The notes under the pieces were generated by a model. That model was not told the origin of the DNA. It made no database searches and saw only the letters and a program-made list of their open reading frames with translations. A program made the translations under genes and the position numbers. Positions 53,913 through 64,000 of a DNA stretch of 64,000 nucleotides are shown in pieces. The DNA is from Alphaproteobacteria bacterium UBA3773 (GTDB taxonomy: Bacteria; Pseudomonadota; Alphaproteobacteria; RF32; CAG-239), in the NCBI GenBank assembly GCA_002372275.1, contig DFFP01000003.1, positions 17,851 through 81,850 of the forward strand, written 5' to 3'. Position 1 is the first letter of the stretch; each line of letters begins with the position of its first letter.

Positions 53913-55481
53913 TTACATATCTTTTGGATATCTCTTTCTCATTGCTTGAGCTACAGCAATTTGAAGGTTTGCAGTTTCTTGGTGTTTTTTCTCAACTTGA
54001 CCTTTTTCATTTGCGGTTTTCCCCATAAACAGTTTTTCATTTTCGTGTCTCATTTTATTATATTCAGACAGTCTGCGTTGCATCTCATGGGCTTTTTCTT
54101 CTAAAACATCAATAGACATATCAGAAATACTGTCCAGGGCACTACTTTGTGTTTCCAAAAGGTTATAATGTTGAGCACGTATATTTTCAACAATGCGGGC
54201 GACGCCAGGTAAAATCTTACCTTTCTTTTGCGATATTGCCACACAAATATCACCAATCGCATTAACTTCATTTTGAGTTATTTCTTTTGTTTTCGTGATT
54301 GTTTCTAAACCATCTAAAACTTTACTTAACAAATGAGGATGCTTGTTAAGCATTTTATGCATTGTTTGAATATATACCTCTGTTTTGTGATTTCCTCCCT
54401 CTTTCGTGGCTTCAATCAATCCATCCAACATAATGCCTGCATTTTGCGATGACATTTTTAATGCAGCACTTTCATAATATTCATATCCATATCCGACGAT
54501 TTTTAGATGAGCTTTAACGTGATTAGTCAAAAACTGGCTTAAAAAACGAGCAGTCTCATTTTCACATTTACGATTTTGGTCCAACCACTGAGCCACAGTA
54601 CTTAAAATTTGTCCTGACTCATAATGAAGAAAAGATTTTTCTTTGGTATTATTTTGCAACAAATCATAGGCTGATAGAGATAAATCGGGCCGTAATTGAA
54701 TGACAGTTTGAATAAATTGACAATAACTTCTATCCGTTATCCAAGCCGACATACCTTTATCTTCACTGTCGTTATAGCTTGGCATACGGCTTGCACAATC
54801 TAAAATCCTTTCACCTAAATCCGGTCTGACTTTGATTATTGCTTCCATATCTAAATAAGCGCTTTTTAATCCCATAATATTATGTTTTGGAGATTCAAAA
54901 TGAACCTTTTCAAAAACTTCAATTACTTTTTCTGCACTTGTAGGATTGTGAACAGCTATATTACTCAATACGTCACAACAAAAACGTGTCGTACTATCAC
55001 TATACGTTTGATCCTCTGTTACTCTTTTTTCCATCAAACTCAAAAGCTCTGAATCTTTTGCCAAATCAGGCTGTTTTTTTATAAGTAGTGAGATGGATAG
55101 ATATAAATCCCAAAGTGATTCGTCTTCGTTTTTTTCTGATTTTAGTCCTTCTTTCAAAATTAAACACACATCTTTCATATACGAAGGATATTTTTCAGCT
55201 AGATTGTATAATGAGTGATACATAGAAGACAAAGTTTCAGGTGTATTTTCCGAAGAACCTATTTCTCTTTTAAGAATATCAATTATTTTTTTGGCATCAT
55301 CCTCATTATCCGCAGAAGGGAGAGTAGGAAAATATCCCGCTTTTTTCCTCCCCATTTCAATCAGCCGATATGTCACATTTTCAAGCTCCTCAGGATGTGT
55401 TCCCAAATGTGCAAGAATGCCTAGATTTTCTATATATAACTTCATTGAAACTTTTCTTTGTTCGTCCTGCTCAGTATTCAT
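53913..55481 (-). CDS. Helical-repeat (HEAT/ARM-like) protein, paralog family member
   Basis: 522 aa with recurring RPDLGERILDCASRM, RPDLSLSAYDLLQNN, HPHLLSKVLDGLETI and QPDLAKDSELLSLMEKRV units, the same repeat grammar as the N-terminus of 55657-58596. Confidence 0.5.
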   Translation of the reverse strand: MNTEQDEQRKVSMKLYIENLGILAHLGTHPEELENVTYRLIEMGRKKAGYFPTLPSADNEDDAKKIIDILKREIGSSENTPETLSSMYHSLYNLAEKYPSYMKDVCLILKEGLKSEKNEDESLWDLYLSISLLIKKQPDLAKDSELLSLMEKRVTEDQTYSDSTTRFCCDVLSNIAVHNPTSAEKVIEVFEKVHFESPKHNIMGLKSAYLDMEAIIKVRPDLGERILDCASRMPSYNDSEDKGMSAWITDRSYCQFIQTVIQLRPDLSLSAYDLLQNNTKEKSFLHYESGQILSTVAQWLDQNRKCENETARFLSQFLTNHVKAHLKIVGYGYEYYESAALKMSSQNAGIMLDGLIEATKEGGNHKTEVYIQTMHKMLNKHPHLLSKVLDGLETITKTKEITQNEVNAIGDICVAISQKKGKILPGVARIVENIRAQHYNLLETQSSALDSISDMSIDVLEEKAHEMQRRLSEYNKMRHENEKLFMGKTANEKGQVEKKHQETANLQIAVAQAMRKRYPKDM

Positions 55482-55656
55482 TAAATTTCTCCTTTCAGGA
55501 TTGATAAAAAAATATTTTTTGACATCTTAGTTGAATATCATACAGATTCTTCAAATAATTTCAGACTTTAAGTTCATTATAAATAAAAAAGAAATTTTTG
55601 TCAATATATTTTCAACGTAAACAAAAAAATTCTCACTTTTCAAAAATAATCTTTTT

Positions 55657-62878: not shown

Positions 62879-63257
62879 TTCTTATGATCCTTATATTTAT
62901 ATGATAATTTGATTTTACCCCCGCAAACAAAAAAGTCAAGTTTTTTTGACAAAAAAGAAAATTGATTATTCCTGCTTGTTAAAATTCAAATTTTTAAGAC
63001 AAATATAAACCGTTGCGTATAAGCCAAAGTTGCTTTTAAAAACAAAAACCGCCTGCATTGAAGCGGTTTTTATAAATGGTGCGCGCCACGATGCGATTAT
63101 CGGATTGGAAATTGAGCAAGAAAACTGTTCGATTTTATTGCAAAACGAGATATTTTCTTAAAGAATAAAAAACTTGAAACTTTTTATAAAAATGTTACAA
63201 TGCATGTAATTCTGATTATACCTGATACTTATTATTTTCTTTCATACGGAGAACAGC

Positions 63258-64000
63258 ATGAATAAAAGTACACAAGCAAATGCAAAAAAAGAAGAAAGAA
63301 GAGCAAGGCGCTTGGCTCAAAAATTATTTATCTCCTACGTTGTTCAGAATCCGGGGGCGATACGTATAATCAAAAAAAACGACACTATTTTTAATTCTGT
63401 ATCCAATTTTAAAGATTTCATTTTAGATGAAAATAATCCCAAAAATTTAAAGTTTGCCAAGAGAACAGCTTCTTTTATAGAGAAAAAAAGCGATGATTTA
63501 GAACAGCTTTTGAAGTTATTGGATCAATATCCCGATGCACTGAATAATATCCGCGTTCCTGACCAAATGTTAAAATTGCTTTCAAACAGCGATATTCAAA
63601 TAGCAGGGAAATCTGCGCAAAAAGTTTTAGACAATCCGGAAGTCATTGAATCTTTGGCCAGTGTGTCTGATTTTATTATAGAAAACGATACTGTCAGTTC
63701 TTTTTCAGAATACCTTAAATCAGAATCACAACAAGACGTTCCCCCATCGGTGGCAATAGTTCGTTTCATTAAAGATAATCCGGACAAAGCGCAAACATTT
63801 ATGGAATTTATTGAGCAGAACAGTAGCGATATTACCCGAATTGCAACGTTTCTTCAAGAGCCTGAAAATGCAGATTTAGCCTCAGCACTTGGTTTACCGC
63901 AAGAAGGACACGAAGTTGCAAAATTTTTAGCTGTCAACAGTGAGCAAATACAACCTGCTGTTTCCATGATTCAAAACGAGATTTTAAAGAATCCCGAATT
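63258..64000 (+). CDS. Helical-repeat protein, N-terminal part; continues beyond the window. Member of the same paralog family as 53913-55481 and 55657-58596.
   Basis: The ORF from ATG 63258 (MNKSTQANAKKEERRARRLAQK...) is open to the window end. Units NPEVIESLASVSDFI, NPDKAQTFMEFIEQN and QPAVSMIQNEILKNPE are present. It is absent from the track only because it has no stop in the window. Confidence 0.5.
   Translation, partial: MNKSTQANAKKEERRARRLAQKLFISYVVQNPGAIRIIKKNDTIFNSVSNFKDFILDENNPKNLKFAKRTASFIEKKSDDLEQLLKLLDQYPDALNNIRVPDQMLKLLSNSDIQIAGKSAQKVLDNPEVIESLASVSDFIIENDTVSSFSEYLKSESQQDVPPSVAIVRFIKDNPDKAQTFMEFIEQNSSDITRIATFLQEPENADLASALGLPQEGHEVAKFLAVNSEQIQPAVSMIQNEILKNPE

Follow-up and report, generated by a model that had tools for sequence, protein, structure and literature searches.

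In a 64,000-nucleotide (nt) stretch of the genome of Alphaproteobacteria bacterium UBA3773 (contig DFFP01000003.1, positions 17,851 to 81,850; hereafter the window), we analyzed gene B, an open reading frame (ORF) of 979 amino acids (aa) on the minus strand (55657..58596) that encodes an N-terminal repeat solenoid followed by a conserved C-terminal enzyme module. The conserved unit of the protein is this 600-aa module, which comprises a helical domain, an unannotated domain that we call M, and a GNAT domain. We read B as a modular acylating enzyme that may be exported from the cell, and assign this combined reading a probability of roughly 0.55. An earlier note, made from the letters of the window, had described genes A, B and C as sharing a helical repeat, had pointed to a GNAT-like C-terminus in B and had suggested that the proteins could be secreted effectors; it missed the 600-aa conserved module and, within it, the unannotated domain that carries the cysteine pair (CC) mentioned there. 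The novelty lies in M, as a large, unannotated family of sharp conservation, in the combination of M with a RimI-like GNAT domain in a tandem dominated by the N-lobe, and in the joining of this M/GNAT module to a HEAT-like array next to a VirB locus of gut and rumen Alphaproteobacteria. Neither solenoid repeats nor GNAT domains as such are out of the ordinary.

A conserved C-terminal module defines a large protein family

The AlphaFold2 (AF2) model of B residues 363–979 reached a predicted local distance difference test score (pLDDT) of 90.8 and a predicted template modelling score (pTM) of 0.83. The module opens with an all-helical domain (residues 363–622, 56731..57510; like all parts of B on the minus strand; pLDDT 93–98), in which alignments show the motifs HDAxYWLP and FAxEAAK; closer relatives have the domain in common, distant ones just its last part. 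M (residues 628–797, 56206..56715) and the GNAT domain (residues 803–945, 55762..56190) follow, and the protein ends in a disordered basic tail (residues 946–979, 55660..55761) with pLDDT below 50 and a net charge of +8.

An identical copy of B (P0001) is present in public assemblies, and the region recurs unchanged in a public contig (L001). Among 5.8 billion proteins, a word-indexed search yielded relatives of B in seven clusters only, all from uncultured Alphaproteobacteria. These relatives measure 734–1,599 aa in total, differ widely in the length of their N-terminal repeats and share 53–83% identity with B across residues 363–979. They derive from rumen and gut metagenome-assembled genomes that bear the label Alphaproteobacteria or a similar one and were obtained, among others, from cattle, reindeer and roe deer rumen as well as Hadza and Nepali human gut. 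An exhaustive search with a profile of the module (B 363–979) enlarged the family to 1,957 cluster representatives at E ≤ 1e-3, 162 of them at E ≤ 1e-30, with protein sizes from ~150 to 7,556 aa.

The module match ends 0–20 residues from the C-terminus in almost all of these proteins. Two versions of it occur, a core corresponding to B 547–795 on its own and the same core followed by a domain matching B 795–945, and the N-terminal parts of 27 long relatives consist of pentapeptide, annexin or RHS repeats, or of HEAT-like segments. The distribution of the family is patchy and lineage-restricted, and scans of IMG/VR gave no viral link for it. One contig of a distant organism (L017) holds four M-domain genes within 17 kb (2080–2424, 3767–4129, 8526–9005 and 11449–12135). 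Around this M-gene cluster and two others (L016, L025), few or no neighbouring genes have a Pfam match; nearly all genes of L016 and L025 lie on one strand, and two neighbouring large proteins of L016 have an N-terminal 'YL.AKAQW.DA' motif in common.

The last domain is predicted to be a RimI-like acetyltransferase

On the basis of sequence profiles and of the model, we assign residues 803–945 to the GNAT superfamily as a canonical domain of RimI/N-terminal acetyltransferase (NAT) type, for which acyl-CoA binding and transfer would be expected. In the model, this segment runs through the element order of the GNAT fold, β1-α1(-α2)-β2-β3-β4-α3-β5-α4-β6-β7, with strands β4 and β5 splayed apart. 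A profile built from 19 diverse family members matched PDB sequences of the RimI-type protein 9mto (E 2.4e-5), VipF of Legionella hackeliae (6wqb/6wqc; E 2e-4) and archaeal Ard1, and Foldseek aligned the B model with 9mto at E 5e-6 and a template modelling (TM) score of 0.62. A PDB search with a profile of the close homologues gave noise only (T-cell receptor chains). Among Pfam models, Acetyltransf_7 appeared in close homologues under its cut-off (E 0.01–0.03) and Acetyltransf_1 in a few distant members at E 9.5e-6.

The motif-A position is taken by VVLPAYRKDQNASSSKLLLEMMK (residues 868–890, 55927..55995), which spans the end of strand β4, the loop and helix α3. In the next helix, Tyr911 is invariant in close homologues, and a tyrosine also stands in the consensus of distant members, whose motif A reads R-x-x-S-x-x-L and is likewise without glycines. 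The earlier note had joined motif A and the CC pair in one GNAT-like C-terminus. The first part of that claim stands, since VVLPAYRKDQNASSSKLLLEMMK is part of the GNAT domain; the CC pair (residues 661–662) sits about 200 residues upstream, in M, so that the two belong to different domains.

Two findings count against the assignment. In motif A of B, R874 is in place within the sequence R-K-D-Q-N-A-S-S, but other residues stand in for both glycines and the segment has gained a short insertion; and B alone has no Pfam match at E up to 0.1 and none in Pfam or NCBIfam at threshold.

M is the most conserved part of the family

M shows the strongest conservation in the whole family. Its signature consists of RxDxR, CCQH, SWxW, FDxxE and DxxxQ, and the CC pair (C661–C662) falls within the family's most conserved motif, CCQH (residues 661–664, 56605..56616). 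In an alignment of 175 members, the conserved residues are F644, R647, D649, R651, G656, C661, C662, Q663, H664, E688, S698, W699, W701, F713, D714, E717, D781 and Q785, the polar ones at 85–100%; C661 is kept in 90%, C662 in 99%, Q663 in 98%, H664 in 85%, D714 in 99% and E717 in 100%. M also occurs without the GNAT domain in many relatives.

In the AF2 model, the strand and helix order of M follows the GNAT pattern, and Foldseek aligns M plus the GNAT domain along the entire length of tandem GNAT proteins (VipF with 290 of 290 columns, 3tt2, 7q3a, 2hv2 and 3n7z), at TM scores of only 0.25–0.30. From the strand order and these low-TM alignments we infer that M may have a GNAT-like fold. Apart from the low scores, the sequence comparisons speak against a second GNAT fold: M shows no similarity to the GNAT domain of B (hhalign check for internal duplication, E 0.068 over 11 columns, not significant) or, as an M-only profile, to any PDB chain. 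The sole M-only PDB hit, at E 1.4, is a protein that we take to be the artificial TIP60 nanocage protein, not the acetyltransferase. Across 24 M-only segments, no Pfam family recurred at E up to 10.

Tandem GNATs characterised to date have an inactive N-lobe (PMC10936415). In B this lobe is M, which is the best conserved part and can stand alone; this argues for a function of its own. A bolder proposal, which we hold to be speculative and rather unlikely, is that M arose from the GNAT fold as a new kind of catalytic domain, in which Cys662 may act together with Asp714 and Glu717. It would then define a large polymorphic family of exported effectors or toxins (~2,000 clusters at 50% identity), in which the N-terminal arrays set target or delivery specificity and which, in the gut and rumen Alphaproteobacteria, a VirB-type type IV system would deliver.

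Genes A and B share a generic two-helix solenoid

The three ORFs named in the earlier note lie at the coordinates given there, A and B on the minus and C on the plus strand; none of them has a Pfam or NCBIfam match that reaches threshold. In its sequence, B contains nine proline-anchored units of 36–38 aa each (residues 37–367), with anchor prolines at 51, 89, 127, 162, ~205, 239, 275, 311 and 349, a spacing of 35–38 aa. We built a repeat hidden Markov model (HMM) from the B units alone and used shuffled sequences as the background (200 in the leave-one-out runs). When each unit was left out in turn, eight of the nine scored 12.8–30 bits, compared with shuffle maxima of 3.9–9.3, the ninth being out of register. 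The top off-diagonal self-alignment score of residues 1–380 was 205 (shuffle maximum 48).

Gene A (53913..55481, minus strand; 522 aa) contains the same repeat type in residues 84–300 (54582–55232), followed by a helical C-terminal half without an assigned function. It scored 24.8 bits against the B repeat HMM (shuffle maximum 3.9), was recovered at E 1.6e-7 among the 159 ORFs of the window, and matched B across the repeat regions by BLASTP (4e-8). Its units, about five, are spaced more loosely, at 39–45 aa. The repeats of both proteins score far above shuffles, and the proline-turn grammar followed by helices that the earlier note had described holds in A and B alike, while the period of 36–38 aa fits B and not the spacing of A.

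Gene C does not belong with them. It begins at 63258 on the plus strand and extends past the window end (63258..64000, partial in the window); the complete protein of 720 aa, read from the public contig (L001 3177–5339), is a different helical protein with longer repeats of its own. Its score against the B repeat HMM, 3.7 bits, falls within the shuffle range (maximum 5.6; E 1.7 in the ORF scan), and BLASTP against A or B gave E ≥ 0.4, which rules C out as a member and leaves a family of two, not three. Within C, residues 171–238 match 421–496 and residues 340–389 match 468–518, and the tail (residues ~640–694) is a near-perfect tandem copy of a 27-aa unit, NESLLATAD[M/I]MKKD.KRAEEKSQNI. C is unrelated to A and B.

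The expanded repeat family that the earlier note had envisaged is not found within the window, since the B repeat HMM detected the repeat in A and B only among all 159 ORFs. A has a single known homologue (P0209, 37% identity), the gene of which adjoins a phage-type integrase. We regard A as a paralogue confined to this lineage, one that corresponds only to the solenoid of B.

Structure prediction on the repeat and C-terminal regions, as the earlier note had proposed, yielded models of both the solenoid and the GNAT domain. The full-length AF2 model of B has a pLDDT of 86.1. Residues 33–356 (57529..58500) are modelled as nine helix-turn-helix repeats, that is, nine helix pairs with block pLDDT values of 69–95, mostly above 84, in which the proline opens the second helix. 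Foldseek matched these repeats in the PDB to designed repeat proteins, the TPR region of OGT, TBCD, importin-beta, TNPO3, AP2 and Integrator, with E from 4e-5 to 3e-3 and low TM scores. At the level of Pfam, solenoid families matched in homologues of B only, namely INTS1_R4 (a solenoid segment of Integrator subunit 1; above threshold, up to 38.7 bits, E 1e-9), INTS7_N and ECM29_N; A gave sub-threshold matches to MMS19, TNPO3 and INTS7. PDB sequence searches with the N-terminus of B and with A found no match.

The description of the repeats as HEAT- or ARM-like therefore holds in part. The B model shows paired antiparallel helices in stacked tandem units, as in HEAT proteins, and AF2 and Foldseek agree on a two-helix alpha-solenoid. 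The Pfam models HEAT, HEAT_2 and Arm do not match A or B, the canonical P/D/R pattern of HEAT repeats is missing, and the proline of B starts helix B. ARM repeats, which have three helices per ~42 aa, are excluded because the modelled unit of B has two helices per 36–38 aa. On the basis of the model, the repeats of B are best described as a generic HEAT/TPR-like alpha-solenoid and not as HEAT or ARM repeats at the sequence level.

Gene B lies in a tRNA-linked variable region beside type IV secretion genes

The window is chromosomal, with dnaB, aspS, tyrS and other housekeeping genes. In a sister genome (L023), two genes of a type IV secretion system stand 2 kb upstream of a B orthologue with 79% identity (P0002). 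One encodes a VirB10 protein of 1,404 aa (TrbI/VirB10 domain, E 1.7e-30) and stands directly upstream of virB11; the other, the VirB11-type ATPase of 323 aa, aligns over its full length with TIGR02788 at E 1.2e-41, under the equivalog cut-off. In this VirB-type locus (L023 1–9000), beta-flower and DUF3659 repeats make up an N-terminal extension of ~1,000 aa in the sister VirB10, and the gene before virB10 encodes beta-flower and RHS repeats. Between the type IV genes and the B orthologue sits a tRNA-Thr.

The present genome has a gene for a 323-aa T2SSE-family ATPase and the same tRNA-Thr (GGT) just past the right end of the window (L001 1–953). This ATPase gene lies 10 kb upstream of B, and its 3' end, the part contained in L001, has 78% DNA identity to the sister virB11 region. 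The type IV genes observed are thus the virB11-type gene and, in the sister genome, virB10 as well.

Compared with the sister genome, two insertions surround B. The first, of 8.7 kb, follows the tRNA-Thr (window 58597–64000 and L001 954–9692) and contains C and eleven small genes, among which an HD-domain gene is the only one with a Pfam match in the contig gene table. The second, of ~5 kb, follows B (window ~50500–55481) and contains A, suhB, a gene for a 418-aa membrane protein and a 203-aa ORF. These insertions mark a hotspot of gene flux and, together with the tRNA-Thr and virB11, place B in a tRNA-linked variable region that flanks a VirB-type locus. No conserved gene follows the B orthologues; the downstream genes differ at each locus and are often on the opposite strand or of housekeeping type.

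Promoter-like sites, recognised by consensus match only, precede both genes on the minus strand. The site of A (55576..55604; TTGACA, 17-nt spacer, TATAAT) agrees with the sigma-70 consensus at 12 of 12 positions and lies ~95 bp before the start codon; that of B (58632..58659) agrees at 11 of 12.

Two kinds of non-coding element occur in the vicinity. A 137-nt element at 61836–61973 is predicted to fold into four hairpins with a minimum free energy of –58.1 kcal/mol (z –4.2; none of 200 shuffles as stable). It is present once in the window and has no Rfam match; in the sister genome, two inverted copies of ~93% identity (L023 9784–9919 and 12947–13084) bracket the B orthologue. A dispersed intergenic repeat of ~70–160 bp with 75–90% identity among its copies and a terminator-like hairpin occurs at 58741–58904, 59654–59748, 9148–9213, 13444–13511 and 27887–28025. 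One of its copies is upstream of B, and two flank an ORFan of 1,335 aa (9289–13296, minus strand). Across the whole window, Rfam found a tRNA-Glu only.

Other features of the window

The 1,335-aa ORF has no Pfam match and forms a singleton cluster in a collection of 15 billion proteins; it could be another lineage-specific large protein. At 49944–50450 (plus strand), a 168-aa ORF consists of ~33-aa repeats (..RGNHDEIM.YI..S.EAE.ALIK..) with a weak DUF6922 match; by tblastn it has a match in another contig (L015), where a fragmentary B relative lies ~2 kb away. Furthermore, the window contains a Ser/Thr protein kinase gene and two genes for sensors with Cache-like PDC, HAMP and SpoIIE (PP2C phosphatase) domains (25570–27033, 29365–31248 and 38360–40681), and one of the two SpoIIE sensors also carries HATPase_c_2. 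Taken together, the kinase and the SpoIIE sensors suggest that this genome makes extensive use of partner-switching or phospho-signalling.

Proposed function of B and alternative explanations

If these predictions are correct, the solenoid of B would most likely offer a nine-repeat binding surface for a partner or target, and the C-terminal 600 residues would act as a catalytic module of helical domain, M and GNAT domain. The chemistry would most likely be the transfer of an acyl group from acetyl- or acyl-CoA to an amino group of a protein, with this substrate held by the solenoid and the helical parts and the cofactor bound by the GNAT domain. M would either recognise the substrate or contribute a further activity, with R647, D649, R651, C662, Q663, S698, D714, E717, D781 and Q785 as its invariant polar set. 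In this reading, B would also leave the cell through a type IV system and act on another cell as an effector or toxin. We regard the architecture and the acetyltransferase reading as likely; secretion, taken separately, seems to us a real possibility that stays somewhat short of even odds.

Export is favoured over a housekeeping role because the module stands strictly at the C-terminus behind interchangeable repeat arrays, because some genomes carry clusters of paralogues (the four M genes in L017), and because B lies near virB11, which virB10 directly precedes in the sister genome. B is thus genetically linked to a type IV system, and the effector idea put forward earlier appears plausible for B, favoured by this adjacency and by the analogy with VipF. 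Several findings weigh against export. No signal peptide was found in B. The earlier note had asked for a search for type IV secretion signals; a comparison of the C-terminal tails showed no conserved signal or charge pattern, the tails of the B homologues having a net charge of 0 to +2 compared with +8 in the last 35 residues of B. The basic tail of B is therefore ruled out as a conserved type IV signal, its charge not being kept. Other B orthologues (P0005, P0186 and others) lie among cysS, gltX, gidB and parAB, and their 8–9 kb flanks are free of secretion genes. For these uncultured bacteria we found no evidence of an intracellular lifestyle or of contact with eukaryotic cells, and our literature search returned no papers on them and type IV secretion. 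Finally, the adjoining type IV system could simply be conjugative.

Some of the same findings suit the view that B is a cytoplasmic acetyltransferase that is not secreted, its solenoid recruiting an endogenous bacterial substrate and its proximity to type IV genes being incidental. The housekeeping surroundings of P0005, P0186 and other orthologues agree with this, as do the negative search for a secretion signal and the nearest solved relatives, which are of the RimI type and act on ribosomal proteins. Such an enzyme would, however, be unusual in several respects: housekeeping proteins rarely place a strictly C-terminal module behind N-terminal arrays as variable as RHS and pentapeptide repeats, nor do they tend to form multi-copy clusters such as that in L017. 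The patchy, lineage-restricted distribution of the family and the position of B in a tRNA-linked variable region beside virB11, the sister virB10 just upstream, add to this. We therefore rate a purely cytoplasmic role as the less likely explanation, albeit one with appreciable weight.

A further explanation casts B as a polymorphic toxin against competing bacteria, with M and the GNAT domain as the toxic tip and A as the immunity protein. GNAT toxins are known, TacT and AtaT being examples; the C-terminal module stands behind variable arrays, RHS included, throughout the family; and A lies downstream of B in the same orientation, 175 bp away. A is, however, absent beside the 79%-identical orthologue and all other orthologues, which rules out a role for it in immunity or as a partner; nor do the orthologues have a conserved small gene behind them, so that a cognate immunity gene directly downstream is lacking. 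Moreover, A has a perfect promoter-like site of its own and resembles the N-terminus of B, not an immunity family. We consider this explanation improbable. That the repeats are compositional noise in AT-rich, Lys/Glu-rich ORFs and the GNAT likeness a chance motif, as the lack of threshold Pfam and NCBIfam matches in A, B and C might suggest, has next to no probability, given leave-one-out and cross-protein HMM scores far in excess of shuffles, high-confidence AF2 models and independent structural and profile matches to GNATs; for A and B it is refuted, and it holds just for the placing of C in the family.

If the reading of B as an exported, modular acylating enzyme is true, it opens a way into the structure and function of a very large, wholly unannotated family (nearly 2,000 clusters at 50% identity, with proteins of up to 7,556 aa) through a conserved C-terminal enzyme module, a GNAT-derived domain with invariant Cys, Asp and Glu that is often paired with a RimI-like acetyltransferase. 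It would also give rumen and gut Alphaproteobacteria, uncultured and little understood as they are, a candidate means to act on protists, host cells or other bacteria.

Comparison with known systems

In its repeats, B resembles importin-beta, TNPO3, INTS1/INTS7 and the TPR region of OGT, all of which stack units of 36–45 aa with two antiparallel helices each. In HEAT proteins the proline kinks helix A, whereas in the B model it lies at the inter-helix turn and caps helix B.

With RHS-type polymorphic toxins, the B family has in common a conserved C-terminal module behind interchangeable arrays and the possible occurrence of paralogue clusters. It differs from them in having no adjacent immunity gene and no recognised trafficking domain, and M matches no toxin domain in Pfam or NCBIfam.

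The closest counterparts of residues 803–945 are RimI/Naa enzymes (Coxiella CBU0801, 9MTO; Escherichia coli RimI, 5ISV; Sulfolobus Ard1), which are the top profile and structure matches. Both sides share the strand order, an Arg at the motif-A position and a Tyr on helix α4. Identity amounts to 10–18%, and B departs from these enzymes in its replaced motif-A glycines and an insertion of 3–4 residues (KDQNASS). RimI/Naa proteins are enzymes of 150 aa, whereas the GNAT domain of B closes a multidomain protein of 979 aa.

VipF (Lpg0103/Lha0223; PDB 6WQB, 6WQC and 7WX5) is a tandem-GNAT effector secreted by the Legionella type IV system, which acetylates eIF3-K and the N-lobe of which is degenerate (PMC10936415). 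It is a direct precedent and supports, by analogy, the reading of B as an effector. Unlike B, VipF measures 290 aa and is without a solenoid or helical domain, and the global superposition of the two is poor (TM 0.30). In B, by contrast, conservation is highest in the N-lobe, which carries a CCQH/FDxxE signature of its own and stands alone in many relatives. The secretion system near B, known from its genes, is of the VirB type (IVA), that of VipF is Dot/Icm. Should the proposed function of B be borne out, B would represent a second architectural type of tandem-GNAT effector beside Legionella VipF.

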